From contig MGJF01000002.1 of NCBI GenBank assembly GCA_001794125.1, positions 172,514 through 236,513 of the forward strand: 64,000 nt of DNA. The letters run 5' to 3'. Made by a program: the position numbers and the translations under genes. The DNA is from Candidatus Yanofskybacteria bacterium RIFCSPHIGHO2_01_FULL_43_32 (GTDB taxonomy: Bacteria > Patescibacteriota > Minisyncoccia > 2-02-FULL-40-12 > GWA2-44-9). Positions 2 to 56,401 of this stretch are shown here, piece after piece. Under the pieces are notes generated by a model, which saw only the letters and a list, made by a program, of their open reading frames with translations, did not search any database and was not told the origin of the DNA. The stretch's first letter is position 1; the number at the start of each line of letters is the position of its first letter.

Positions 2-271
2 CAAATAGATATAGAAGCGTGGATGCCAGGACAGAATCGCTATCGTGAAACTCACACCGCAGACCTCATGACCGATTATCAGGCAAGGCGTCTCGGGATT
101 AAAGTAAAACGAGCCGGTGGAACAGAGTTTGTCCACATGAACGATGCTACGGCTTTGGCTCTTAGTCGAACCCCGATTGCCATCATGGAGAATTATCAAA
201 CTAAGAAAGGTACTATTGAGATTCCTAAAGTTCTTCGCAAATACATGGGCGGGATTAAAGAGATTAAATAA
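2..271 (+). CDS. serS: seryl-tRNA synthetase, C-terminal fragment (5' end lies outside the window)
   Basis: Translation ends ...TPIAIMENYQTKKGTIEIPKVLRKYMGGIKEIK, the class II SerRS C-terminal signature (ENYQ...G.IEIP.VL..YMGG). The frame is open to the window edge. Confidence 0.75.
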   Translation, partial: QIDIEAWMPGQNRYRETHTADLMTDYQARRLGIKVKRAGGTEFVHMNDATALALSRTPIAIMENYQTKKGTIEIPKVLRKYMGGIKEIK

Positions 272-507
272 TCGCTCCGCCCGACACCTTATTTCAGCCC
301 GTTCCGATTGCTCCAGCGATTGGCTCCACTTGTCCTCACGACGGCGGGTCCAGCCTGCCATATCATGATGTTTATTGAATAGCATTACTCATCTGACGGA
401 AAGCCTAAAGCTTGAATAGCTTCTCTCGCGAACTATGGCATGGACACCAAGCCCGCCTGTTCGGACGGGCTTCAATAAGATGCCGGGCTGCGCTTACTAT
501 TTTAGGC

Positions 508-3131: not shown

Positions 3132-3815
3132 ACAATCAGTTCTTTACATAGGGCCTCATAAAAAGGGCCCGAAAAAAACCAGTAAATACCTCATTATCCA
3201 GGCATTCAAGTAAGATATATTTGGCCTTTAAGGACATAGACATTTGTAGAAGTATTTCATGATTAGTTCTCAAGTTGTATGATTTGCTGGTTTTTTTCGG
3301 GCCCATCTATGCCCAACAAGATGGCCCGGCGCAGTCCTTATACCCAAGACGGGACATGCGGAAGGAGTTAACATGCTCCTCTGTGTGTGACTGCGCCGCG
3401 GCCTCAGTATCGGCAGGACAAAGTTGCCTGCCGACCCTCGGCGGAAAGTGGTGTTGACGAAGAGGGCAACAACAAAACCACACCGCCGCCAGGCGCCGAC
3501 TGGGGGAAAATACCCGGCCGGTCTTAGACGGCCGCTCCGCGCCGCGAAAATTCGCGCGAAGCGGCCGTCATCCACGTCAGCATTCCGGGAATGGTGGATA
3601 ACCCGGGTCTCGCCGACCAATAAGTGCGGGATTTTCAACCACTCGGGAGAGGCGTATCGTCTCTCCCGTCCAAACCTTTCTCGCCCAGGCATAACGCAAA
3701 GAAGGGAGGGTGAGCGGTTGGAAACTTAGCGGGGAAGCCCGCGGTAAAAATACTTCGCTTTGGCAAGGTGTGCGATACACCTTCCACGGGCCCTAACGGG
3801 CCTGTTTTCTTTTGT
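3132..3815 (+). ncRNA. candidate large structured non-coding RNA (~680 nt), identity unknown
   Basis: Bounded by the 3097-3125 promoter and the 3789-3815 terminator. The segment 3270-3800 is ~60% GC in a ~40% GC genome, and every ORF on both strands translates to Arg/Pro-rich junk. An 18-bp long-range inverted repeat pairs 3165-3182 with 3287-3304. Strong GC helices are present, e.g. gacggccgctccgcg...cgcgaagcggccgtc with a cgcgaaaattcgcg apex, and cggcgg...ccgccg. Confidence 0.3.
3789..3815 (+). terminator. intrinsic terminator (ggccc-taac-gggcc then a U-run)
   Basis: A 5-bp GC stem with a taac loop followed by tgttttcttttgttt. It is oriented for a plus-strand transcript even though the next gene is on the minus strand. 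Confidence 0.5.
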
Positions 3816-3822
3816 TTAAAAA

Positions 3823-5595
3823 TTACTGTGTAATATGCCAGACGAAGATGGAGTTGCCGATGTCGGCGACGGGTTTGCAAGAATCAAGCCAGGCGTAACT
3901 GGTTTCCGGTTTTTCTCTTGAGCCCATGAAAAACGATTTAGAAACGGCAATATATCCGCCGCCGGGATTATCCGCGAGAAATTCTCGCGCGTTTTTGTAC
4001 CTGCCGGCGTTTATCCAGACATATTTACTTCCAAGGTAGAAACCGGCGTCAGCCCAGCCGAAATAATCCAAACTGATCTTGGTGATTTTATTCTTATCTA
4101 CCCAATCGGCAAGACGCTTTGCATCTTGTCCCCAATCCACATTTGAATCTACTGCGTATAAGTATCCGCCTTTGGGTCCGCCTGCGGCCTGATTGAAATA
4201 AGTGAGATAATGGGGAAAAACATTTAAGTTTTCAAACAAATACCAACCGAGCAAAACGGCAATTAACCAGCAGGTCGCAACATATTGTTTGCGGCTTATA
4301 TTTTTTAACCCGTTTTCAATGCTTGTAAGTTGTCCGGCAAGAAGAATGTAAACAAAACCGTATATCGGCATCAAATGCCTTACGCCGATGTTTAAGTTGG
4401 CTTTTATGCTGGCATACCAATAGATGGCAAGCCAAACAAGCATTGAAAATTCGGTAAAATGGTTTTTTAGCCAGTGTGTCAATTTGTATCTGTTCGGTTT
4501 AAAAATAACCGCTAAATTCAACAAAACCATTACAGCCAGTCCCCAGAACGCCAATGGTTCTTTTATGAAATAAACGACAGGGAAGTATTTCTTCCAGGCG
4601 GTTTGTTTGATTTCTCCTAAAAAATAAGTCGTGTTTCCGCCGACACTTCTTTGGGTTACCATCAACAAACCCAGGCTGTATTGGCTTAGAGCGCGTATAT
4701 AAGGTTTGTCCGAAGCCCACACTACTTTATCGGCAATAGACCTGTTTCCGTAACTGTTAAGATAATAAGTTGTGTCGGTTTTTTGTCTTGCCACCGGGTA
4801 ATTTATCACATGAAGGCCGTATACCGGCCAGACAACCGCCAGATAGCCCAGAACAATAATTGCGACAGTAAAAAATAAAGTTTTGGCAACAGAATATATT
4901 TTATTATGCATGGCTCGTCCTGAATTTATTGAATGGATTAGTCCCCAAGAAATTGCGAGAATAATAAACAGAGGATTTAAAAGGAACAATGAAAATTTGG
5001 TCAGTTGCGCAATTCCAAAAGCAATCATGGCTATGGTAAAATTGGTTTTAGTTTGGTTTTGGAGAAACCGTATAAAAAAATAAGTCCCTAATAATATTCC
5101 GAATAATGCCGGGACGTCAGTGGTCACAAAACGGCTGTGGGCCATAACGGTGGGGGAAAAAGAAAACATAAAAACGGCAATCAGCGCCGCCTTGTCGCCG
5201 TATAGTTTCCGAGTCCAATAAAAAATAATTATCGCCGAAAGAATAAAGAACAAAACCATCGGAAGTTTGGCGATTCTTGTCATCAGGATAGCGTCATTTC
5301 CGGAATTAAAAATAAGGTTTCTTCCGAAATTCCATTGGCCGTTGATGTCGCCGGTCCAGAACTGTGTTTTAAATGCTGACTGGTTTAAAGATAAAAAGCT
5401 CAAGGCAAACCCGGCCAGATCCTTGACTAAGGGAGGATGCTCCGGGTTTAATCGAAAATCACCTTTCTGAACATAAGAATATCCCGCTCCGATGTGGGGA
5501 ATTTCGTCTACTATGGGCGAGTCGTTCCAGACGCTAATAACCGCCAGGATGGCGGCTGAAACAATTATAGTTATCGCTATAAATTTTATTCTCAT
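3823..5595 (-). CDS. integral membrane glycosyltransferase, family 39/83 (ArnT/PMT-like)
   Basis: Many TM helices. It has the N-terminal conserved motif DEIPHIGAGYSYVQ...NPEHPPLVKDLAGFALSF, matching the DE...HPPL signature of GT-C mannosyl/arabinosyl transferases. Confidence 0.7.
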   Translation of the reverse strand: MRIKFIAITIIVSAAILAVISVWNDSPIVDEIPHIGAGYSYVQKGDFRLNPEHPPLVKDLAGFALSFLSLNQSAFKTQFWTGDINGQWNFGRNLIFNSGNDAILMTRIAKLPMVLFFILSAIIIFYWTRKLYGDKAALIAVFMFSFSPTVMAHSRFVTTDVPALFGILLGTYFFIRFLQNQTKTNFTIAMIAFGIAQLTKFSLFLLNPLFIILAISWGLIHSINSGRAMHNKIYSVAKTLFFTVAIIVLGYLAVVWPVYGLHVINYPVARQKTDTTYYLNSYGNRSIADKVVWASDKPYIRALSQYSLGLLMVTQRSVGGNTTYFLGEIKQTAWKKYFPVVYFIKEPLAFWGLAVMVLLNLAVIFKPNRYKLTHWLKNHFTEFSMLVWLAIYWYASIKANLNIGVRHLMPIYGFVYILLAGQLTSIENGLKNISRKQYVATCWLIAVLLGWYLFENLNVFPHYLTYFNQAAGGPKGGYLYAVDSNVDWGQDAKRLADWVDKNKITKISLDYFGWADAGFYLGSKYVWINAGRYKNAREFLADNPGGGYIAVSKSFFMGSREKPETSYAWLDSCKPVADIGNSIFVWHITQ

Positions 5596-6677: not shown

Positions 6678-6742
6678 TTATTCTATCAGAAATTTATTAA
6701 AGTTTTATCAACAAACCGTAAATTGGTGGCATTTTATACCAT

Positions 6743-6772
6743 TGACAAAGTGCCATTAAATATGCTATACTT
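6743..6772 (+). promoter_or_regulatory. sigma70-type promoter (TTGACA, 18-nt spacer, TATACT)
   Basis: TTGACA at 6743-6748 and TATACT at 6767-6772, about 60 nt upstream of the 6833 ORF. Confidence 0.45.
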
Positions 6773-6832
6773 ATACCATCAGTTCACTTACAACCAATTC
6801 AATTCCGCATTTCGCGGGCAAGGAGAAAAGAA

Positions 6833-7261
6833 ATGTCCGACAGAAAGTTAATTATAATCATGACCTGTATCCTTGTTGTACCGTCAGTGGCCTTAGTAGC
6901 GATTATGGTTCTTATAGGCTTGGGTCGTGGCGACGGCATCGAACCCGGCAAGACATACGCCCTCGCTTACTCTTACAAGGCCACGATCAAGGGCGGGACG
7001 CCGGCTCGCGTGTTTGACTTCTCGGACAGGAGCCTTCCACGGACTTCCGTCGTGGTTCCGCTTCGTGATGACCGTGGCATGCCGCTGGTTGAAGAAATCT
7101 CGAGCATGCCTCAGAGCACGGTTCGGAAGGTCGTCGCCAGTGTTCCAACTCGGACAGTAGAAGGTGTGACCTATCCCGGCTACACTTACGTGGTGTGGCA
7201 ATACCACCTTAGCGTGGTTGGGTCGCAGAGCGTGGTCCCCGAAGTCATTCCCGGCAAGTGA
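6833..7261 (+). CDS. hypothetical small membrane-anchored protein carried on a GC-rich (probably foreign) segment
   Basis: N-terminal TM helix (IIIMTCILVVPSVALVAIMVLIGL). The ORF is ~60% GC, unlike the flanks. It has its own promoter and a multi-hairpin terminator. Overlapping ORFs on the other strand reflect the GC-rich composition. Confidence 0.4.
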   Translation: MSDRKLIIIMTCILVVPSVALVAIMVLIGLGRGDGIEPGKTYALAYSYKATIKGGTPARVFDFSDRSLPRTSVVVPLRDDRGMPLVEEISSMPQSTVRKVVASVPTRTVEGVTYPGYTYVVWQYHLSVVGSQSVVPEVIPGK

Positions 7262-7269
7262 GCGCAATC

Positions 7270-7326
7270 GCCCCGGAGGGCGTAACCAGAAATCGTGGTT
7301 ACGCTTCCTCCGGAGGCGGTTTTTTG
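7270..7326 (+). terminator. cluster of three GC hairpins ending in a T-run
   Basis: cgccccggagggcg, gtaaccagaaatcgtggttac and cctccggagg are followed by cggttttttg. Confidence 0.45.
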
Positions 7327-7363
7327 ATACTTTGAACTTTTATTGCCAATCATCATTTATCAT

Positions 7364-7452
7364 TTAAGCAACCGGCGGAGGGTGTATGTCTTTTTAAAAT
7401 TAGCAAATTTTTAAAAGGCATACCCCGCAGTATGCATGGAGGTTATGTGAGC
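7364..7452 (+). repeat. copy A of a ~90-nt structured intergenic repeat family (copies at 7364, 28755 and 29622)
   Basis: Shares ttaaRcaaccggcggaggg ... aaaattagYaaRatttt ... gcatRgagSttRtgtgaRc with the other copies. The central stem differs between copies but stays complementary: gtatgtcttttt/aaaaggcatac here versus gtgccccttt/aaaggggcac in copy B. Confidence 0.6.
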
Positions 7453-7516
7453 TGTTAAAAATGATGAGGCAGAGCTTGTGGAATATTGGTTTTTATTTTT
7501 GTGCTACAATTAAACC

Positions 7517-10903: not shown

Positions 10904-10975
10904 CCTCTTCCAGGAAACTTGACATAAATTACTAAGGGTGATATCTTGTTTTTAGTTCTGAATAAAGGAGGCGCC

Positions 10976-11203
10976 ATGATACTACACAAGAGGTTTCGCG
11001 GGTTGCATGTCTTTATTCTCGCGATATGTGTTCTTTTTGCAGTATCTCTCTGGAAGACATGCTTCAACGGTTCCGATCTGTCCGGATGGTGGATGGCTGG
11101 GTTGTGGTATAGCATGTTTCAAGGGGCTGTTGCCATTGCTCACTTGGTAGACCTGGCGGAAGGTAACCTATGCGTGTGGTTGGGTCCAGAGAATACCCTT
11201 TAG
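10976..11203 (+). CDS. hypothetical small membrane protein
   Basis: An AGGAGG RBS sits 6 nt before the ATG at 10976, chosen over the 10946 start. Two predicted TM helices. A terminator hairpin cgcacttcgtcttgtgcg plus a T-run follows at ~11228-11262. Confidence 0.35.
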   Translation: MILHKRFRGLHVFILAICVLFAVSLWKTCFNGSDLSGWWMAGLWYSMFQGAVAIAHLVDLAEGNLCVWLGPENTL

Positions 11204-11284
11204 TTTTACCTCGCATATGATAATCCTCGCACTTCGTCTTGTGCGGGGCTTTTTTATTTTTATAAATTGGGATAAGATAGCGGT

Positions 11285-12337
11285 ATGTTGTATCGGAAAT
11301 ACAGGCCGCAGACATTTGCCCAAGTCGTCGGGCAGGAGCATGTAGTCAAAACACTGAAGGGAGCGTTATCAACTGGCCGGATAGGCCACGCTTATTTATT
11401 TACCGGACCGAGGGGGACGGGCAAAACAACTTTGGCAAGGATTTTTGCCAAGGCATTGAACTGCGCCAAGCGCGATAAAGACGGCGACCCTGATAATTCC
11501 TGTCCAAGCTGTCTCACGACCAACGAAGGCCGTTCTTTGGACTTGATAGAAATAGATGCCGCCTCAAATAGAGGCATAGACGAGATAAGAAATCTTAAAG
11601 AATCGGCTCTTGTAGCGGCTCCGTCGGGGGGGTACAAGGTTTTTGTCATTGACGAGGTTCACATGCTTACCAAAGATGCTTTTAACGCTTTACTGAAAAT
11701 TCTTGAAGAACCGCCAAGCCATGTTGTCTTTGTTCTTGCCACCACCGAACCGCACAAAATTCTGCCGACAGTTCTTTCTCGTGTCCAACGATTTGATTTC
11801 AGACGCCTGACACCGAGCCAGATTTTCACAAAACTTAAAGAAGTAGCCATGGCCGAAAAAATCAATATAGAAGACGAGGGCCTGAAAGCGATTGCCGTTT
11901 CTTCCGACGGCGCGCTACGAGATGCGGAAGTTTCTCTTTCAAAACTTCGTTCATATCAGGGCAAAATAACCGTTGACGATGTAACCAGCGCTCTCGGATT
12001 GGTTCCTTTCAGATATCATTCCGAATTTATGGGTTATCTCGTTGCCGATGACAAAGTTTCAGCTCTCAACTTTATTCAAAGAATTCACGAGTCGGGAGTT
12101 GACTTAGAACATTTCACAAAAGATTTTATTGAATACGTCAGGAGGGTTTTGATGTTTAAAATAAACCCGGCAGTTTTAACGGCAATCGGGGAAGAGTCTG
12201 TTCAAAACTGGCAGATTGACGGATCTAAACTTGTAAAAATAATGAATCTTTTTATTTCGGCCCGGAACGAAATTAAAACTTCGCCGGTGGTTCAACTGCC
12301 GCTGGAATTAGCGGTATTGGAATTATTGCAACCTTAA
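11285..12337 (+). CDS. dnaX: DNA polymerase III subunit gamma/tau (short form)
   Basis: YRKYRPQTFAQVVGQEHVVKTLKGAL...GHAYLFTGPRGTGKTTLARIFAKALNC, a Zn-finger CPSC, and VFVIDEVHML. Confidence 0.9.
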   Translation: MLYRKYRPQTFAQVVGQEHVVKTLKGALSTGRIGHAYLFTGPRGTGKTTLARIFAKALNCAKRDKDGDPDNSCPSCLTTNEGRSLDLIEIDAASNRGIDEIRNLKESALVAAPSGGYKVFVIDEVHMLTKDAFNALLKILEEPPSHVVFVLATTEPHKILPTVLSRVQRFDFRRLTPSQIFTKLKEVAMAEKINIEDEGLKAIAVSSDGALRDAEVSLSKLRSYQGKITVDDVTSALGLVPFRYHSEFMGYLVADDKVSALNFIQRIHESGVDLEHFTKDFIEYVRRVLMFKINPAVLTAIGEESVQNWQIDGSKLVKIMNLFISARNEIKTSPVVQLPLELAVLELLQP

Positions 12338-27723: not shown

Positions 27724-28743
27724 ATGTGGTCATTGATGAAAAAGCCGATAATCGTCAAAAAAAGTCCGGTAGTGATCGTCAAGAATTTTATTTTGCTTCA
27801 AATCGGAGCGATTGTCGCCTTTTTTATAGTTAGCGCGCTTGCCAACTATGCCGCAATCTACCGTTCTCTGACAATCTCTCACGCCATTTCGTTCCGTATT
27901 GCCGAGGCTTTGTTTATTTTTTCGACTGAAACGGCTATGGTATTTTTCATATTTTTCCGATGGTATAAAGAATCTTATCACATTCGCAATAACGAAATTA
28001 TTCATACCTATGGTGTTTTTTACAGCCATGAAACAACAATCCCCATGGAACCTGTTACTTCGGTAAGCTACCGTCAAAGCCCGCTCGGAAAACTTACGAA
28101 ATACGGGACAATAGAATTGACCGGCAGCAACATAAACAAGAAAATCCGGTTGAAAAACATTCCCTCTCCGGAAGAATATGTCGGCTTGATTTTAAAATTT
28201 TCCGCCAGAGGCGAATCCGCTTTTGACGGAAAGAATAAAACCGGAACGCCGCCGGTTTTAGCGGAGCTTCTTAATCATAGTGAGCACGAAAACTTGGAGT
28301 TTAAGAGTACATTCCGTTGGGACACAAGACAGAACGCGGTAAACCGCGTTCTTGAAAAATCGGCAATGAAAACCATTGCCGCATTTCTTAATTCTCGGGG
28401 CGGGCATTTGGTGATGGGAGTTGACGATAACAAAGCGGTTGTAGGATTAGCTTCGGATTTCGGCTCTCTTGTCAGGAAAGACGCCGATGGTTTTGAGAAT
28501 CATTTCACTCAAATTTTTCACAATATGATCGGTGCCGAATTCAGGCAGTTTGTGAAATTGAATTGGTCGCAAGCGGACGGCAAAGAATGCTGTATTATAA
28601 GCGTTTCACCAAGCCACAAACCGGTATATTTAAAAAGCGATAACAGTAACGAAGAGTTTTATATCAGAACCGGCAACGGAACTACGGCTCTAAAATTATC
28701 CGAGACCAACGCCTATATCGACTCCCGTCGGAACAGGTTTTAA
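27724..28743 (+). CDS. membrane protein with an N-terminal bacterial PH-like (YdbT-type) domain and a C-terminal Schlafen/AlbA_2-like domain
   Basis: Two N-terminal TM helices followed by a PH-like region. The C-terminal ENLEFKSTFRWD...KTIAAFLNSRGGHLVMGVDDNKAVVGL matches the AlbA_2 (divergent AAA, Schlafen core) signature. Confidence 0.5.
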   Translation: MWSLMKKPIIVKKSPVVIVKNFILLQIGAIVAFFIVSALANYAAIYRSLTISHAISFRIAEALFIFSTETAMVFFIFFRWYKESYHIRNNEIIHTYGVFYSHETTIPMEPVTSVSYRQSPLGKLTKYGTIELTGSNINKKIRLKNIPSPEEYVGLILKFSARGESAFDGKNKTGTPPVLAELLNHSEHENLEFKSTFRWDTRQNAVNRVLEKSAMKTIAAFLNSRGGHLVMGVDDNKAVVGLASDFGSLVRKDADGFENHFTQIFHNMIGAEFRQFVKLNWSQADGKECCIISVSPSHKPVYLKSDNSNEEFYIRTGNGTTALKLSETNAYIDSRRNRF

Positions 28744-28754
28744 TAAATTTTATA

Positions 28755-28844
28755 GTTCACACAAGCTCTATGCGTACGGAGGGAGACGCCTTTTTAAAAA
28801 TTTACTAATTTTGTAAAAAGTGTCTCCCTCCGCCGGTTGCTTAA
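28755..28844 (-). repeat. copy C of the ~90-nt structured repeat, in inverted orientation
   Basis: On the minus strand it reads ttaagcaaccggcggagggagacactttttacaaaattagtaaatttttaaaaaggcgtctccctccgtacgcatagagcttgtgtgaac. The stem is extended relative to copy A (cggagggagac/gtctccctccg). Confidence 0.6.
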
Positions 28845-28915
28845 GTGGTTGGTGGCAACTGGCAATAAAAGTTCAAACTCTCTTCGAAACTGGCTTAAAA
28901 AGCCAGTTTTTGGTC

Positions 28916-28944
28916 TTGCAATTTCATTTTGAGTGTGGTATAAT
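28916..28944 (+). promoter_or_regulatory. sigma70-type promoter (TTGCAA, 17-nt spacer, TATAAT) for the NADAR gene
   Basis: It follows the terminator hairpin ctggcttaaaaagccag plus a T-run at ~28890-28915. Confidence 0.4.
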
Positions 28945-29050
28945 TAAATAGTTAGTAATCCGTTCTTTTCATTTTTGGAGGTGTGATGAGAGGTTTCTTT
29001 TTCTTCTTTATCTTCGGTCTGTTGAGCGGAAAAAAAAGAGGAGGTAGAGA

Positions 29051-29515
29051 ATGCCAGTCTTGAATATCGGTAGCAAGTCAGACGACTGGCGTGCCTGTCG
29101 CTTGAGCAATTTTTCAGCCGATGCTTTTGTGCTTGATGGAGAAAGAATGGCTTCTGTTGAGGGGTTCATTCAGGGGACGAAATTTCCTGATGGACACCCG
29201 ACTCGACAGCAGATATTTCAATCCGTCGGCGTAGAGGCAAAGCGGTTCGGAAAAAAGGCCGAGCGAAAGTTCGTCTGGTGGAATGGTCGAGCCATCTCCT
29301 ACGGCTCACCTGAACATCACGAACTCATCGAGAGGGCTATCCGTGCAAAGTTCGAACAGAATACAACCGCAATGGATGCTCTTCTGGCAACCAGGGGAAT
29401 GATACTAACGCATGACCTTGGCCATCCAGACCCGCCGAACACATCACTTCCAGCCAAAGTCTTCTGCGACATCCTGACCAGGATTCGTGAGGAGACTCTC
29501 CGGGCCCGTAAGTAG
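29051..29515 (+). CDS. NADAR (YbiA/DUF1768) domain protein
   Basis: RLSNFSADAFVLDGERMASVEGFIQGTKF matches the NADAR motif LSNF...F.LDG....S.EH..Q..KF. The ORF is ~58% GC, well above the flanks. Confidence 0.6.
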   Translation: MPVLNIGSKSDDWRACRLSNFSADAFVLDGERMASVEGFIQGTKFPDGHPTRQQIFQSVGVEAKRFGKKAERKFVWWNGRAISYGSPEHHELIERAIRAKFEQNTTAMDALLATRGMILTHDLGHPDPPNTSLPAKVFCDILTRIREETLRARK

Positions 29516-29621
29516 CGAAAGCGAAAGCGGGCTTTGTCATTTTAATATTAAGCAAGCGTAGCTCTTGCAACTTTATTTCATTTCTACCTTGAATCTTGCT
29601 TATTAATTATCAGCTATAAAC

Positions 29622-29711
29622 TTAAACAACCGGCGGAGGGTGTGCCCCTTTATAAAATTAGCAAGATTTTAGAAAGGGGCACACCGCAGCACGCATGGAG
29701 GTTGTGTGAGC
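29622..29711 (+). repeat. copy B of the ~90-nt structured repeat
   Basis: ttaaacaaccggcggagggtgtgcccctttataaaattagcaagattttagaaaggggcacaccgcagcacgcatggaggttgtgtgagc. A TATAAT box follows, immediately upstream of the next ATG. Confidence 0.6.
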
Positions 29712-29763
29712 AATTGAAATAAGGTGCTGGGTGGAGCGATTTTTTTTATGATATAATGAACCA

Positions 29764-30039
29764 ATGGGATTTTTCTTTAATACAAAACCGAAGGCAACAA
29801 AAGAGGAGTTCCAAAAAGTCAGGAACTATCTTTATTCGATGGGCTTTACTCACAAAGAACTGGAGCGAATCAAGGAGATTTTCCGTTCGGATCTGGATGA
29901 GTCCGCGAGTTATGAGCGAGGGATTTCCGGCGAAGAAATTGACAAAGGAATCCAATGGATGAGAGCCAATGTGAATATCCATCACATCTCTGCGTCTAAA
30001 ATAGATATTTTAGAGAAAGCCCTCAAGTCAAAGTTGTAA
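29764..30039 (+). CDS. hypothetical small protein (91 aa)
   Basis: An ORF directly after a TATAAT box, possibly leaderless. A palindromic terminator follows. Confidence 0.4.
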   Translation: MGFFFNTKPKATKEEFQKVRNYLYSMGFTHKELERIKEIFRSDLDESASYERGISGEEIDKGIQWMRANVNIHHISASKIDILEKALKSKL

Positions 30040-30044
30040 TAAAT

Positions 30045-30069
30045 CCCTCACCTTTCGGAAAGGTAAGGG
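30045..30069. repeat. palindromic element ccctcacctttcggaaaggtRaggg (family copy 1 of 3), a bidirectional terminator between convergent genes
   Basis: The same palindrome recurs at 37788-37816 and 51980-52008. Here a second hairpin ccccgccatggcgggg follows it. Confidence 0.5.
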
Positions 30070-30095
30070 ATAAAAATCCCCGCCATGGCGGGGTC

Positions 30096-37735: not shown

Positions 37736-38341
37736 CAAATCATGGATTTCTTTCCAAGATTTAACTCTGGCATAGCCGGAGTTTTTATACCTCACCTTTC
37801 GGAAAGGTGAGGTATTTTTAAATACACCTAAAGGATCAAAAAGTATCTTATTTGGTACAGAACGGAGTACGTCTAAAACTTTTTGTTCATCGTCTATGTA
37901 GTGGGTGATTCCAAGTGCTTTGGCTTTTATTTCCTTATCTTCCGGTTCCAACACGAAAAAAGTATTTTGTCTATTAAAGTATTTGGGCCAAAGACCATGC
38001 TTAGTTAAAAGTGTTATTGCAGTTTCTTCTTTTTTGCGTCTGGATATTAAAAAATAGGGGATTTTTAATTTTTGTATTTTAGTCAGGGTAACTTTAACTC
38101 CCGGCATAAGGGGTGAAAACAAAGCCGTCTTGGGCTCATCGTATAAAACTCTTTGAAAATTCCGATAGGTTGCTAAGGGGGTTATAAGTTTTTTGATTAT
38201 TTCTGAAGGAGTTTCCGTTTTTTTTATTTTGAAACCAAAATTTTTGGCCAAATCAACCTTTCTCTGGGCATGGTCAACAATAACCCCGTCCATATCGAAT
38301 CCTATTATTTTTTTATCCACTTGTGATTTCATGGTTATCAC
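37718..38341 (-). CDS. HAD superfamily hydrolase (5'-nucleotidase/phosphatase-like)
   Basis: Motif I FDMDGVIVD, motif IV YIDDEQ. Its 3' coding region runs through palindrome copy 2 (37788-37816), which is translated as KNTSPFRKVRY. Confidence 0.6.
   Translation of the reverse strand: MITMKSQVDKKIIGFDMDGVIVDHAQRKVDLAKNFGFKIKKTETPSEIIKKLITPLATYRNFQRVLYDEPKTALFSPLMPGVKVTLTKIQKLKIPYFLISRRKKEETAITLLTKHGLWPKYFNRQNTFFVLEPEDKEIKAKALGITHYIDDEQKVLDVLRSVPNKILFDPLGVFKNTSPFRKVRYKNSGYARVKSWKEIHDLLLKKV
37788..37816. repeat. palindromic element atacctcacctttcggaaaggtgaggtat (family copy 2 of 3)
   Basis: A near-perfect 29-nt palindrome. It terminates the upstream plus-strand gene and lies inside the 3' end of the minus-strand HAD ORF. 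Confidence 0.5.
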
Positions 38342-51850: not shown

Positions 51851-51979
51851 TTTTGGGGGATTAGAGAGAGTTGAACTCTCGCCCGCAGTTCCACAAACTG
51901 CTGTGCTAACCGTTACACCATAATCCCCATATCATAAACATTATACTCTTTTTTATTGAAAAATCCAGCTAAAACAAAA

Positions 51980-52008
51980 ATCCCTTACCTTTCTGAAAGG
52001 TGAGGGAT
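51980..52008. repeat. palindromic element atcccttacctttctgaaaggtgagggat (family copy 3 of 3), the terminator of the minus-strand deaminase gene
   Basis: It is followed on the minus strand by a T-run and abuts the stop codon of the 52008..53045 ORF. Confidence 0.5.
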
Positions 52009-53045
52009 CAAAATATGTGTTCCTTCCGGTTGCCGAATCTTGTCAGCCATGGATTTTGCAACAATTTTTGCTTTTCTTCGTCGGTAAACCGATACGCGTC
52101 GTCGCACATTTGGAAAACTTCATTCAGTTCCGGCTGAAAAAAATCATCATCCGGATTCATTGACCAAAGAACCTCTCGGCGAAGCATTTCTCTGATTTTC
52201 AAAACTTTCAAATCGGGAATATTTCGTCCTTGAAGATTGGAGCCGGGACAGCCCGTCACACCTATCTGCTCATCGGCAATAAATTTCATTGACTCGGAGT
52301 CATAAGGCAGAGCAATTCCGTGGCCGAGCCGCCTTTTTGCTTTGGATTTGAACTTTTTGAACAGACCCAGAACGACCCTTAAATTTTTAATAAGCATCAA
52401 CAGGTCTCTCTGGAAATCCGGGGCTTGTTTTGGCCTGCGGACCCATTCGCTGACATGAACTTCAAGATTGATTCCGGCATTGAGCGCGTATTCAATGGTT
52501 TTCCGGTGTCTTTCCGGCGGAAATTTGTTTTCATCGCAAACGATGTTTGCTCCTACAACATAATTCCGGTCGCATTGCTCGAGAACTTTTAACAATTTGA
52601 CGGCCCTGTGGGACTTAAGTTCACGACCGATGGCAAACAGCAGGTTTGTTTCCGTATCCGGATATCCTTCCTCGGCTTTTTTTATTCCGGCGACAAGCGC
52701 CTCGACAACTCTTTTTGGCGTTAACTTGCCGAAACAGTGGTATTGGGGAGCAAACATTATTTCATTATAACGAAAACCTTGCTTCGCCCTGACAACGACA
52801 TGATTCCATGCCGCTAAATACAAAGCGTCCCAGGTCTGAAGAAGTTTATTTATATGAGAGAATGCCTCAATTATGTTGGAATGAACGTCTAAAAATCTCT
52901 GTCGGTAAATTTGCGTGTAGTCCCGTCTTGGATCAACCCTGATATCGGCCATCATTTGCAACTGCGCCAGTATGTCGCCTAAAGGCTTGGCTCCGTCTCC
53001 GTGGTCATGCAAAAGAGCCGTCTGCGGCCAATACGGTACCGGCAT
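52008..53045 (-). CDS. adenosine/AMP deaminase family metallohydrolase
   Basis: LHDHGDG (HxH-type N-terminal metal site), GVTGCPGSN (CPxSN), and SMNPDDDFF (the DDP region) match adenosine deaminase family motifs. Confidence 0.65.
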   Translation of the reverse strand: MPVPYWPQTALLHDHGDGAKPLGDILAQLQMMADIRVDPRRDYTQIYRQRFLDVHSNIIEAFSHINKLLQTWDALYLAAWNHVVVRAKQGFRYNEIMFAPQYHCFGKLTPKRVVEALVAGIKKAEEGYPDTETNLLFAIGRELKSHRAVKLLKVLEQCDRNYVVGANIVCDENKFPPERHRKTIEYALNAGINLEVHVSEWVRRPKQAPDFQRDLLMLIKNLRVVLGLFKKFKSKAKRRLGHGIALPYDSESMKFIADEQIGVTGCPGSNLQGRNIPDLKVLKIREMLRREVLWSMNPDDDFFQPELNEVFQMCDDAYRFTDEEKQKLLQNPWLTRFGNRKEHIF

Positions 53046-53346: not shown

Positions 53347-55131
53347 ATGACACATGGCGAGATTCGCGAAAAATTCCTCAAATTTTTTGAAGACAGGGGA
53401 CACAAAATAGTCCCGTCTTCGTCGTTGCTTCCGGCCGACCCGTCGGTTCTTTTTACCACGGCCGGAATGCAGCAGTTCAAGCCGTATTTTTTGGGAGACG
53501 CGGACCCGGTAAAAGATTTTGGCGGCAGAAGGACTGTGTCAATTCAAAAATCAATGAGAACTTCCGACATAGACGAGGTCGGGGACGAATCGCACCTCAC
53601 ATTCTTTGAGATGCTCGGCCACTTTTCTTTCGGCGATTATTTTAAAAAAGAGACGATAGAGTGGACTTACGAATTTCTAACCGATGTTCTTAAAATTTCC
53701 AAAGACAGGCTCTCGGCAACGGTTTTTGCCGGAGACGATAAAATTCCGTTTGACGAAGAGTCCTACAATGCCTGGTCCCGGTTCCTGCCGGCCGACCGTA
53801 TCCGCAAAGGGCCGCGGGAAGATAACGTATGGGGACCGCCCGGCCCCGAAGGCCCGTGCGGCGCCGCAAATGAAGTTTATGTAGATGACATGGAGGTCGC
53901 CACACTGGTTTTCATGGAATATAACTGTGATAAAGACCAGAATCTGACACCTTTGCCCCAAAAGGGGGTTGATGTCGGGTGGGGATTGGAAAGGATCGTA
54001 ATGATAACCCAGGGCAAAGGTAATATTTTTGAGACCGATTTGTTTGAACCGATTATGAAACTCCTTTTAGATTCTCCAAATAAATGGCTGGGAAGAATAA
54101 TAGCTGACCATGCACGAGCCGTTGTTTTTCTAATTGCCGATGGTGTCACTCCTTCAAATAAAGAACGGGGTTATGTCCTCCGGCGCTTATTGCGACGAAT
54201 GATTATTCAACTTTCCAGCTATACTGACGATTTTCTCGCCCCTATTTCAAAGGTTGTGGACTTATACGGTTCATATTATACCTTCGATAAACAAATGATT
54301 ATCGATGTTGTTGAGTTAGAAGCAGATAAATTTCAAAAAACCCTTACTCAGGGACGCAAAGAATTAGAACGTTTGGAATCCATAGATGCAACTAAAGCAT
54401 TCATGCTGTATGAATCATATGGTTTGCCCTTTGAGGTCATAAAAGATTTGGGTAGAGAAAAGGCCAAAGGACTTACTCGAGAGGCGTTTGATGAAGAATT
54501 TAAAAAACACCAGGAAAAATCCCGTGCCGGAGCGGAGAAAAAATTCGGCGGTCACGGATTGCTCATGGATACAGGTGAATTAAAAGCTGGAAACGAAGAA
54601 GAATTAAAGAAAGCCACACGACTTCACACAGCAACACATTTATTGCACGCCGCGTTGAGAAAAGTTCTGGATCCGCCAGCTGGCGGAGAAGTCCAACAAG
54701 CCGGTTCGGATATTACTGCAGAAAGATTGCGATTTGATTTCACCTTTCCTCGCAAAATGACCCCTGAGGAAATAAAGCAGGTTGAGGATATGGTAAACGA
54801 AGCGGTTCAGAAAGACTACAAAGTTACAAAAGAAGAAATGTCTTATGAAGATGCGGTCAAATCCGGCGCGATGGCATTTTTCAAACTTAAATATCCTAAT
54901 CGTGTAAATGTTTACACGATTGGCCCTGAGTCTTTCGACCCTGAGCTCAAGACCGAAGGGCCTGTCGAAGGGCATAATCCTTCGTCATCAAATTTCTCAG
55001 GACCTCCTTTCAGTCGGGAGCTTTGCGGAGGCCCTCATGTATCCCACACTGGCGAGATTGGCCATATCACTATTACCAAAGAAGAAGCCGTCTCCGCGGG
55101 GGTCCGCAGGATTAGGGCGGTTGTAGAGTAA
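53347..55131 (+). CDS. alaS: alanine--tRNA ligase (short form lacking the C-Ala domain)
   Basis: FLKFFEDRGHKIVPSSSLLP...LFTTAGMQQFKPYF, and the editing-domain HxxxH (HTATHLLHAAL). Only 594 aa. Confidence 0.9.
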   Translation: MTHGEIREKFLKFFEDRGHKIVPSSSLLPADPSVLFTTAGMQQFKPYFLGDADPVKDFGGRRTVSIQKSMRTSDIDEVGDESHLTFFEMLGHFSFGDYFKKETIEWTYEFLTDVLKISKDRLSATVFAGDDKIPFDEESYNAWSRFLPADRIRKGPREDNVWGPPGPEGPCGAANEVYVDDMEVATLVFMEYNCDKDQNLTPLPQKGVDVGWGLERIVMITQGKGNIFETDLFEPIMKLLLDSPNKWLGRIIADHARAVVFLIADGVTPSNKERGYVLRRLLRRMIIQLSSYTDDFLAPISKVVDLYGSYYTFDKQMIIDVVELEADKFQKTLTQGRKELERLESIDATKAFMLYESYGLPFEVIKDLGREKAKGLTREAFDEEFKKHQEKSRAGAEKKFGGHGLLMDTGELKAGNEEELKKATRLHTATHLLHAALRKVLDPPAGGEVQQAGSDITAERLRFDFTFPRKMTPEEIKQVEDMVNEAVQKDYKVTKEEMSYEDAVKSGAMAFFKLKYPNRVNVYTIGPESFDPELKTEGPVEGHNPSSSNFSGPPFSRELCGGPHVSHTGEIGHITITKEEAVSAGVRRIRAVVE

Positions 55132-55396
55132 CCGCTCCGCCCCATTACCTCTCTCCAACCGTTCGCATTCCCCCGCGAGGAATGCTCACTTCATTCTCTG
55201 TCCGGATTTTGTCAAGTCCTTCGACAAGCTCAGGACTATGACAATCCGTGCAATCCGGATTCGAAAGATTGTCGAGAGGCAATGGGGCTGCGCGTTTACT
55301 AACCAAATATGAGCGAGGCCATTGCCATAAAAAGACATTTGAGACCCGGCCTTTTGCAGGGACGAGGCAGTATAATTATTCTGCACTGTCGAGAAT

Positions 55397-56401
55397 ATGA
55401 ATAATTTTTGGCAAAAACTTAATAGGCCGTTTTTTATTTTGGCTCCGATGGCCGATGTAACCGATTCCGCTTTCAGACAGATAATTTTGTCATGCGGTAA
55501 GCCCGATATTTTTTATACTGAATTCGTTTCGGCAGATGGTTTATGTTCCGAAAAGGGTAAATTAAAATTAGTGCCCCACTTGGCATTTAAAAAGAATGAA
55601 AAGCCGATTGTGGCTCAATTTTTCGGTGCCAATCCCGAGAATTTTTATAAATGCGCCCAACTCGCTGTGGAGTTTGGCTTTGACGGCATAGACGTAAACA
55701 TGGGCTGTCCGGCGGGAAAAATAGTAAAGCACGACAGCGGAGCGGGACTCATATTAAACCCCGAACTGGCCAAAGAAATAGTCCGTGAAACAAAGCGCGG
55801 AGCGGCATCCGCCGGCTGGCGGATGCCTGTATCCGTCAAAACCCGCATCGGCTACAACAAAATTATTACCGAAGAATGGATTTCACATCTTATTGAAGCA
55901 AAACCAGACGCAATAATTATTCATGGCAGGACAATGAAAGAGATGTCCAAAGTCCCGGCTCATTGGGACGAGATAGGCAAAGCCGCTGTACTCTGCCGGA
56001 AAGCCGGGATATCCATAATCGGCAACGGCGATATTGCCACTTATGAAGAAGGAGTTAAAAAAGCTGAGCAATATGGGCTGGACGGCATTATGGTCGGCAG
56101 AGCGATATTTTCCAACCCCTGGTTTTTTGACCCAACCATAGACCCGGCCGCAAAAACGCCCAAAGAAAGGATAGAACTGCTTAAAAAACATCTGGGATTA
56201 TTTACGGAGTTGTGGGGGAAGGATAAACATTTTGATGTCATGAAGAAGTTCTTCAAAACCTATATTTCCGGTTTTGACGGCGCCAAGGAATTAAGAACAG
56301 AATTAATGAAGACAAGAAATGAACAGGGCGTAATGGAAGCTCTAAGAAAACATGCTATAATTGAGTTAAATGGCATCTACCAAGATAATCAACGTCCTTA
56401 A
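55397..56401 (+). CDS. dus: tRNA-dihydrouridine synthase
   Basis: FILAPMADVTDSAFRQI, DVNMGCPAGKIV, and catalytic-region homology to DusB. Confidence 0.88.
   Translation: MNNFWQKLNRPFFILAPMADVTDSAFRQIILSCGKPDIFYTEFVSADGLCSEKGKLKLVPHLAFKKNEKPIVAQFFGANPENFYKCAQLAVEFGFDGIDVNMGCPAGKIVKHDSGAGLILNPELAKEIVRETKRGAASAGWRMPVSVKTRIGYNKIITEEWISHLIEAKPDAIIIHGRTMKEMSKVPAHWDEIGKAAVLCRKAGISIIGNGDIATYEEGVKKAEQYGLDGIMVGRAIFSNPWFFDPTIDPAAKTPKERIELLKKHLGLFTELWGKDKHFDVMKKFFKTYISGFDGAKELRTELMKTRNEQGVMEALRKHAIIELNGIYQDNQRP

Follow-up and report, generated by a model that had tools for sequence, protein, structure and literature searches.

The window analyzed here is a 64,000-nt stretch of the genome of Candidatus Yanofskybacteria bacterium RIFCSPHIGHO2_01_FULL_43_32 (assembly GCA_001794125.1, contig MGJF01000002.1, positions 172,514 to 236,513). 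It carries a gene of the NADAR superfamily between two inverted copies of a structured repeat, which we name E and whose copies in the window we call A, B and C. With moderate confidence, we interpret the NADAR block as a horizontally acquired accessory cassette in a hot spot between an slfn-like gene and nadA, bounded by facing E copies, and E as a boundary or recombination module. The initial annotation had proposed a mobile unit, either a miniature transposable element with a cargo gene or a recombination cassette. A cassette bounded by inverted copies stands, and it is a family-wide arrangement (42 head-to-head against 2 tail-to-tail pairs, 39 unrelated kinds of cargo, empty sites in relatives), whereas the mechanism of a miniature transposable element is not supported by the tests made.

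A repeat search of the window identified two inverted arms of 95 nt, at 28752-28846 and 29620-29714, which are 75% complementary, lie 773 nt apart and each contain a hairpin, bearing out the inverted copies that had been described on either side of the NADAR unit. The repeat itself is real but longer than the approximately 90 nt first assigned to it. An nhmmer profile built from relatives delimits a conserved unit of about 131 nt that extends inward to the cargo, at 28751-28881 on the minus strand (copy C, profile positions 3-134, E-value 2.3e-32) and at 29586-29716 on the plus strand (copy B, profile positions 5-135, E-value 8.8e-34). Copy B is followed by an optional 3′ tail (TGAAATAAGGTGCTGGGTGGAGCGATTTTTT, 29715-29745, plus strand), recognized as an inverted match to 266-296. 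A whole-window repeat scan found a third copy on the plus strand at about 7326-7460 (copy A, 7327-7457 by the profile, E-value 2.2e-36); with E-values of 2e-32 to 2e-36, chance is excluded for all three copies. Copy C belongs to subtype beta3, and its stem (CGGAGGGAGAC...GTCTCCCTCCG) pairs perfectly. Its outer (3′) end and the stop codon of a convergent SLFN_AlbA_2 gene (27724-28743) are 8 nt apart, and the 5′ end of the copy points toward the cargo, as does the 5′ end of copy B, which is of subtype beta.

Between the two copies lies a self-contained unit of promoter, open reading frame (ORF) and terminator, as had been annotated. Just inside the 5′ end of copy C is a hairpin (AAACTGGCTTAAAAAGCCAGTTT, 28887-28909) that, from its sequence, looks like a bidirectional terminator. 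The cassette promoter is of the sigma-70 type (TTGCAA-N17-TATAAT with a TG extension, 28916-28944, plus strand, 10 of 12 matches) and is the sole match of the promoter scan in the region; promoters of the TGTGGTATAATTAA type recur in other cargos. The NADAR gene (29051-29515, plus strand) encodes 154 aa and is overlapped at its start by a translated 25-codon hydrophobic ORF (MRGFFFFFIFGLLSGKKRGGRECQS, 28986-29063, plus strand). This short ORF resembles the C-terminus of a PQ-loop ORF coupled to a 90%-identical NADAR gene in locus L160 (L numbers label the individual loci compared). Elsewhere, this PQ-loop gene stands ahead of the homologous NADAR gene, and the short ORF is probably a remnant of its C-terminus, left over from a two-gene operon. 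The gene terminator (29504-29545, plus strand) consists of a GCCCG...CGGGC hairpin at 29504-29532, with a fold of -15 kcal/mol, and the T-rich run TTTGTCATTTT. A second hairpin found in the scan for terminator-like structures (GCAAGCGTAGCTCTTGC, 29552-29568, then CTTTATTTCA) lies directly upstream of copy B. The GC enrichment of the ORF is genuine but was overstated at 58% against 40%: the values are 52.0% (54% at third codon positions) and 43.4% for the window, a difference of about 2 standard deviations of 300-nt windows. The block occurs with the same gene neighborhood in seven further samples or assemblies, and because both repeat copies are identical in all eight contigs it is not an assembly artefact. 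Contig MGKK01000011 (GCA_001794695.1), from a groundwater metagenome-assembled genome (MAG), matches the window, and the protein cluster of the NADAR product is named Candidatus Yanofskybacteria bacterium RIFCSPLOWO2.

Relatives of the slfn/nadA site, found through NadA homologues, allowed us to compare the locus with and without the block. In the window, the slfn-nadA interval (28744-30095) spans 1352 nt and holds E(-), the NADAR cassette, E(+) and a cassette with a 91-codon ORF (ORF91). A space of 21 nt, taken up by a single bidirectional hairpin, separates the convergent slfn-like gene from nadA in L152/L153, whose NadA is 83% identical, and in L150/L151 (NadA 87% identical) the gap is 165 nt. 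A 198-aa gene occupies the interval in L158 (NadA 89%) and several genes occupy it in L156 (NadA 88%). E is absent from all of these loci, and the ORF91 cassette is likewise missing from the relatives with an empty site. Since relatives hold 21-165 nt or other genes at this position, the NADAR block is an insertion into a variable hot spot, polymorphic for presence and absence at orthologous sites. The comparison of L047 with L010/L067 was dropped as a clean empty site, the flanks not being truly orthologous. A block missing in relatives is also compatible with a classical non-autonomous element with terminal inverted repeats, namely a mobile insertion cassette (MIC) or a miniature inverted-repeat transposable element (MITE) with a passenger. 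In that case E(-)-NADAR-E(+) would have moved whole, by cut-and-paste, through a DDE transposase encoded elsewhere; we consider this unlikely on the grounds given below.

The search for further copies suggested at the outset was productive. Scanning 185,579 species genomes with the pattern CAACCGGCGGAGGG-N40-68-GCATRGAG gave 27 stretches, of which four (in Geobacter, Actinomycetes, Myxococcota and Azotimanducaceae) are chance matches outside the candidate phyla radiation (CPR). The others come from five MAGs of the CPR; two of these are Yanofskybacteria, a third, labelled ‘Patescibacteria group’, has at least 12 copies, and there are two more. A metagenome scan yielded at least 114 stretches, from groundwater samples. 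With a profile made from the first copies we collected 224 E copies in 0.98 Mb (142 loci and the window), 181 of them near full length; the loci were gathered because they contain E, so these counts are not genome-wide frequencies, and some metagenomic loci are the same population sampled again, only exact repeats having been de-duplicated. On balance, we take E to be an element of about 135 nt, or up to about 170 nt with its tail, that is specific to Yanofskybacteria-like CPR bacteria and is built of conserved blocks around a covarying long hairpin. Its consensus opens with a T-rich lead-in and (A)GTTTGAAC-ytcTA-TTGCCAAT, continues through about 20 variable bases to the near-invariant block AAGCAACCGGCGGAGGG, and then forms a hairpin of about 50 nt that is followed by CCCCGCAG(T)CATGCATRGAGGTTGTGTGArCTATT. 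The tail, ...AAGGTG..GGGCGGAGCGA, is found in 23 of 184 copies against a background of about 0.4%; with so few copies carrying it, GGGCGGAGCG was rejected as a true terminal repeat.

The fold of E is under selection. Across 134 distinct full-length copies, the hairpin and a closing AACC/GGTT helix are paired in 97.4% of cells, compared with 53-67% after shifting the partners by 1-3 columns. Cells in which both bases of a stem pair have changed number 121, compared with 13 in shuffles, and seven pairs covary. The stem is written in several ‘dialects’, among them GTGTGCC/GGTGCAC, GTGCCCC/GGGGCAC, GGAGGGAGAC/GTCTCCCTCC and TAGCGTGC/GTGCGCTA. On one strand, G-U pairs outnumber A-C pairs by 196 to 31 and the fold is therefore selected on that strand, the E sense strand, whether as RNA or as single-stranded DNA. 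Fold z-scores are -4.6 for copy B and -5.8 for copy C. In a subfamily of E, the hairpin loop is enlarged by about 42 nt of conserved inserted sequence, which forms two extra stem-loops (CCCCGACGCTTCGGTCGGGG, TCCCGACACGTTGTCGTCGGGA), one with a CUUCGG-like loop (L109 2168-2339, L047 10975-11140, L078 3953-4124, L038 269-439 and L051 906-1076), and a covarying variant of this insertion is found in L033 and L134. No Rfam family corresponds to E: the window contains matches to 5 tRNAs only, and when the copies and the loop-extended variant were scanned permissively, the only matches were at chance level, to miRNA and snoRNA families. A phage or plasmid origin was not supported either, with zero matches in IMG/VR, INPHARED (GenBank phages) and PLSDB, and we found no description in the literature of such a repeat in CPR genomes.

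These structural features raise the question of whether E is chiefly a cis-acting RNA element, an insulator, terminator or stabilizer at the edges of foreign genes that is kept for expression control and whose repetition is a by-product. The wobble bias toward one strand, the good folding of both window copies, the loop-extended subfamily with its CUUCGG-like loop and the location directly past terminators would all suit such a role. On the other hand, a canonical promoter is missing from E in genomes whose promoters otherwise follow the sigma-70 consensus clearly (TTGAAC and TTGCCA within E were examined as -35 elements and have no acceptable -10 element at 16-18 nt), its hairpin is not followed by a T-run, and E matches no Rfam family. 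Furthermore, one copy in every pair lies on the opposite strand and points off the cargo, so it cannot belong to the cargo transcript, and the turnover of cargo on the 5′ side, described below, would go unexplained. We therefore regard a primarily RNA-level function as very improbable.

The arrangement of E copies relative to one another is strongly biased. Among neighboring copies no more than 1500 nt apart, 42 pairs are head-to-head, with their 5′ ends inward, 2 are tail-to-tail and 8 are direct. Had E been a ubiquitous terminator or untranslated-region element, one would have expected no inverted-pair bias and a NADAR locus that is syntenic and uninterrupted in all relatives; neither was observed. 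The inner segments of the head-to-head pairs range from 33 to 1286 nt and fall into 39 unrelated clusters, those with several members being a re-sampled locus or a common inner module only. Most cargos are self-contained, with a promoter of consensus type, one or two small ORFs (in many cases a short hydrophobic peptide and a protein) and a terminator, and their base composition is often atypical, in either direction. Recognizable cargo domains include a histidine phosphatase, an M15 peptidase, a YunG-deaminase fusion, a transglutaminase-like protein, a PQ-loop protein and a weak HNH match. The majority of the cargos match no family, and none encodes a transposase. Tail-to-tail intervals, in turn, are housekeeping DNA. 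Among copies with enough 5′ sequence, 44% have a partner, rising to 62% for subtype beta3. Of the 25 pairs classified by subtype, 15 are alpha+beta, 10 are beta+beta (the window pair being beta3 for copy C and beta for copy B) and none is alpha+alpha, though alpha makes up half of all copies. No subtype was consistently on the promoter side of the cargo by inspection, so a fixed subtype position was discarded. As a separate observation, an inner module of about 170 nt is common to two cassettes at different sites (L024 4819-4990, L066 3896-4080); it comprises two hairpins (CAACGGCTCACATGTGAGCCGTTG; GTACACAGAATT..AATTCTGTGTAC) just inside the E 5′ end, and the L066 cargo is made up only of a promoter, a structured leader and a 5-codon ORF.

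Inverted repeats terminate both ends of these units, and this geometry speaks for an element with long terminal inverted repeats around a cargo. MICs are an established class (PMC4337579), and the near-empty pairs, with inner segments of 33 nt (L039), 181 nt (L131) and 216 nt (L077), look like a cargo-free MITE. Other hallmarks expected of such elements were sought and were not found. In 24 pairs, no combination of offset and length gave a target-site duplication above permuted controls, and at single E copies the 5′ and 3′ flank motifs co-occur no more than if independent, again with no target-site duplication. Partners in a pair are 72% identical, compared with 77% for random copies, and mostly of different subtypes. 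Several near-identical whole units at different sites, as known for MITEs and MICs, are absent: 39 of the 42 cargos are unique, and no unit was seen at more than one site. No transposase, integrase or recombinase was annotated in the window stretches at 1-20, 19-39.5 and 39-61 kb, and no transposase or recombinase was found in the cargos or in head-to-head intervals of 3.8-5.1 kb; these larger intervals, considered as possible homes of a transposase, contain only housekeeping genes. Both the boundary duplications and the cognate enzyme that the initial annotation proposed to look for are thus missing from what was searched. A classical MITE or transposon is not shown: no target-site duplication or transposase was found in what was searched, no single unit recurs at a second site, and partners are less alike than random copies. 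In addition, E stays at orthologous sites while the cargo changes.

This last property became evident from the flanks of E. Scoring 400 nt on each side as conserved when found in another, non-identical locus, the 3′ flank of solo copies is conserved in 86 of 101 cases and the 5′ flank in 27 of 101, and the discordant cases split 61 to 2. Paired copies behave similarly (3′ flank 53/65, 5′ flank 19/65). Individual sites illustrate the same polarity. L126 and L121 have the right-hand E and its 3′ flank in common and differ over the whole 5′ side, which is E(-) with a 51-aa cargo in L126 and a GC-rich 133-aa cargo with no second E in L121. At the site of copy A, the terminator and E are common to the window and L054 and the GC-rich ORFs differ. 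At a single orthologous site, each of L024, L020, L108 and L134 has a different cargo, and L077 has a collapsed pair. Upstream of dnaX, E pairs are present in L060 and L135 and a solo E in L023, L054 and L141; the window has an E-free cassette there (10905-11285). From the flank counts and the orthologous comparisons, it follows that E is a resident polar boundary: its 3′ side adjoins conserved chromosome, and its 5′ side faces exchangeable DNA in the form of self-contained cassettes that differ from genome to genome.

Another possible explanation is that E is a selfish repeat, akin to repetitive extragenic palindromic (REP) sequences, their doublets (REPINs) or MITEs, which inserts alone, for example into T-rich terminator tails. 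The two NADAR copies would then be independent insertions and the cassette would have come otherwise. That 56% of copies with sufficient flank are solo fits this well, as do the heterotypic partners, no more alike than random copies, and the occurrence of cassettes and NADAR homologues without E. The E 5′ end lies 10-13 nt past a terminator-like hairpin and T-run in 47 of 184 copies, compared with 2.2% of random windows; a terminator just 5′ of E fits either a module of the cassette edge or a target preference. Decay is also common in the family, with truncated, degraded and internally deleted copies: examples are a collapsed pair fused inside the hairpins (L077 4300-4430), a precisely deleted hairpin (L026 5213-5271) and a head-to-head pair with only 33 nt between its members (L039 9211-9434). 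Independent insertion nevertheless leaves the 42:2 head-to-head bias unexplained, and likewise the 61:2 flank polarity of solo copies, since terminators of core genes should be struck equally often. No gene resembling TnpA or a REP-associated tyrosine transposase (RAYT) was seen, the genomes not having been scanned for them. We find this account improbable; it and the other two alternatives each explain part of the data and conflict with specific tests.

The interpretation as an exchangeable cassette with resident boundaries has its own difficulties, and several results weigh against it. Movement of a whole unit was not observed, with no identical unit at two sites among 42 pairs, and more than half of the copies are solo. 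A mean identity of about 77% among E copies is marginal for RecA-type homologous exchange. The absence of target-site duplications and of recombination enzymes from the stretches searched counts here as well, as does the way in which the loci were gathered. Cassettes of the same design fill hot spots without E, such as that in L158 and the one at 10905-11285 of the window upstream of dnaX, which combines a TTGACA... promoter and a terminator with an ORF that encodes a membrane protein of about 75 aa. (That terminator, …CTTCGTCTTGTGCGGGGCTTTTTT, recurs beside E in L023 and L030.) The closest NADAR homologues on long contigs, at 78-90% identity, also stand in different surroundings and lack E: the L160 gene (90%) follows a tRNA gene and is translationally coupled to a PQ-loop ORF, the L162 gene (85%) follows a tRNA gene, and the L163 gene (78%) lies beside thyX. 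Because same-design cassettes and NADAR homologues occur without E, the element is not needed for cargo mobility.

If E does take part in cassette exchange, it would act in cis, as a recombination or anchor site for the gain, loss and swapping of cassettes, and two facing copies would delimit an exchangeable slot. The agent could be a trans-acting site-specific or single-strand recombinase that recognizes the conserved blocks and the folded hairpin; alternatively, exchange could be driven by homology following DNA uptake. More speculatively, and with considerable doubt, E may be the cis site of a new CPR cassette-exchange system, a folded single-strand (DNA or RNA) recognition element comparable in function to attC/attI but dispersed and used in facing pairs. 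It is an equally tentative suggestion that, in such a system, accessory genes equipped with promoters would be loaded, swapped and deleted at many loci, either by a recombinase or by the machinery of DNA uptake and recombination.

The cargo gene adds a functional dimension. Its product matches the Pfam family Phage_30_3 (T4 gp30.3, PF08010) at 1.7e-29 over profile positions 2-138 of 138, with 102.8 bits against a cut-off of 36, whereas the generic NADAR model gives 1.3e-5, under its cut-off, and the match to the YbiA structure 2b3w is weak. The label ‘YbiA-like’ is thus imprecise; by sequence, this protein of the NADAR superfamily is placed in the gp30.3/AdfN branch. T4 gp30.3 is AdfN (anti-DarT factor NADAR), which strips ADP-ribose from DNA and counters DarT1 (PMC11825919, PMC11125620). 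Features described for this branch are a catalytic histidine in the last strand and ADP-ribosyl-guanine glycohydrolase activity (PMC11125620). Inferring from the family, we predict that the cargo product is an AdfN/gp30.3-type glycohydrolase that would remove ADP-ribose from nucleic-acid bases, and an orphan, ‘antitoxin-like’ enzyme of this kind would shield the cell against ADP-ribosylating toxins. Like T4 gp30.3/AdfN, the protein is stand-alone, without a DarT partner, and scores well above the gp30.3 Pfam threshold; it differs in being encoded on a CPR bacterial chromosome instead of a phage genome and in its length, 154 aa compared with 208 aa in T4. The neighbors at the locus are an SLFN_AlbA_2/bPH_2 protein, the 91-aa ORF and NadA. 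As no ADP-ribosyltransferase gene adjoins the NADAR gene, the locus is not a DarT-NADAR (DarTG1) operon. Assignment to a defense system was also tried, and PADLOC returned no match for the NADAR protein or its neighbors.

NADAR homologues at 60-90% identity are widespread in Patescibacteria. The DNA similarity of L160, L162 and L163 to the window is confined to 29033-29543, that is, the ORF and its terminator, so the terminator is kept with the gene in other genomes. The E-free NADAR cassettes in L160 (about 3600-3700) and L162 (about 3880-3960) start directly past a tRNA 3′ end, ...CCCCGCAGC; the L162 tRNA gene has a TTG (Gln) anticodon in a by-eye reading. E has CCCCGCAG directly 3′ of its hairpin, and this resemblance to the tRNA end may be a coincidence or a hint of a common integration signal.

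Elsewhere in the window, copy A is a solo E (plus strand) with a self-contained, GC-rich cargo on its 5′ side (6742-7325, plus strand), consisting of a promoter (6742-6771), a 142-codon ORF (ORF142, 6833-7261) and a compound terminator (7266-7325). ORF142 has 55.5% GC and no family match, and degenerate orthologous counterparts of copy A are found in L054 and L135. Outside the NADAR pair, on the plus strand at 29746-30095, is the small cassette mentioned above, with a TGATATAAT promoter, ORF91 (29764-30039) and two hairpins; its extended -10 promoter lies directly 3′ of the tail of copy B. A solitary E-tail fragment (266-296, minus strand) starts 2 nt past the stop codon of the seryl-tRNA synthetase gene. 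Beyond it, from 297 to about 905, lie about 600 nt of 53% GC without a long ORF, ending in a degenerate inverted tail at about 885-905. The region 266-905 has no Rfam match and may be a cassette without E cores or a non-coding RNA cargo. A further intergenic stretch at 55118-55433 (54% GC), which includes GGGCGGAGCG at 55133-55142 (minus strand), may be a degenerate E remnant; L112 has an E insertion at the orthologous site.

Several observations stand apart from these. Three different genomes have a conserved E copy that precedes smpB by about 40 nt and is oriented like it (L011 1593-1739, L028 2091-2237, L062 5182-5721), L062 having two tandem copies there. A link to tmRNA through smpB was pursued and set aside, as ARAGORN finds none. 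The idea of an IS110-type element with a bridge RNA was also abandoned: the 349-aa product encoded 17 nt past E in L023 is DnaX, and other genes downstream encode SmpB, S15 and SecD. The window contains a second dispersed repeat, a hairpin (CCTCACCTTTCGGAAAGGTGAGG) at 30041-30070, 37782-37819 and 51976-52013, which is 80-87% matched and located at gene ends, like a shared terminator module. Finally, the GC maximum of the window is an island of 61% GC at 3290-3800, between murB and a PMT-family gene, with only a dubious 140-aa ORF on the minus strand. It has no Rfam match above chance; foreign DNA is one possibility, an unclassified structured RNA another.

Although the genomes of CPR/Patescibacteria are tiny and contain few recognized mobile elements, they vary in their accessory genes. 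Should E prove to be what the data suggest, it would be a polar marker that is portable and sets the limits of the variable slots of the chromosome. It would then provide a simple sequence tag for accessory or recently transferred genes in these uncultured organisms, and a concrete candidate site for tracing recombination machinery. It would further contribute a new family of structured nucleic acids, with strong covariation across 134 distinct full-length copies and no counterpart in Rfam. In addition, the orphan AdfN/gp30.3-type NADAR gene suggests that nucleic-acid ADP-ribosylation conflicts extend to episymbiotic bacteria.

There are several known systems to which E can be compared. Like MICs (MIC231 of Bacillus cereus and the Tn3-family MICs of Xanthomonas), cargo MITEs and Pack-type elements, E forms inverted terminal repeats around unrelated passengers with no internal transposase; as in those elements, one kind of end goes with many cargos, and presence or absence varies among relatives. 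In contrast to them, the E ends are structured, measure 135-170 nt and share only about 72% identity within a pair; the pairs examined gave no target-site duplication, and no cognate insertion sequence is known. The units are also single-copy, and E occurs as a solo polar boundary that stays while the cargo is exchanged. The palindrome-associated transposable elements derived from IS200/IS605 have subterminal hairpins on the same strand at both ends and no inverted repeats, whereas E ends are inverted and their sense strands opposite.

The pdif modules of Acinetobacter plasmids rest on 28-bp protein-binding sites for XerC/XerD with no covarying hairpin, and these sites alternate so that every interval is a module. 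Common to pdif and E are discrete modules of one or two genes between inverted recombination sites, with a kind of module found in different contexts. E differs in its covarying hairpin and in its tail-to-tail intervals of housekeeping DNA. In the minimal mobile elements of Neisseria, conserved flanks let cassettes swap at one site by transformation and homologous recombination; their homology arms are core genes, whereas E is a portable repeat. REP sequences, bacterial interspersed mosaic elements, REPINs and Correia repeats are, like E, dispersed intergenic palindromes, often present as inverted doublets near gene ends (PMC2817692). However, REP sequences measure 20-40 nt, have a fixed short spacing and are associated with a RAYT, whereas E is about 131-135 nt long with a spacing of 33-1286 nt, and no RAYT was seen, the genomes not having been scanned.

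The attC sites of integron cassettes, including the Vibrio cholerae repeats, are similar to E in size (about 60-140 nt), in serving many small cargos and in having the cargo on the 5′ side of the site. Both have conserved end blocks around a stem that is kept in structure and not in sequence, with unpaired bases and strand-specific folding. Read by eye, AAGCAAC/GTTGTGT of E deviates from the attC core RYYYAAC/GTTRRRY at 2 and 1 positions. Unlike attC, E is dispersed and inverted (42 head-to-head against 8 direct pairs) and not arranged in one-way arrays; its cargos come with strong promoters of their own, the neighborhood annotations show neither an integron integrase nor attI, and the breakpoint between variable and conserved sequence is at the E 5′ end and not at the 3′ core site. 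E therefore shares features with each of these systems and differs from MICs, attC, pdif and the REP and minimal-mobile-element systems in at least one tested defining feature each.

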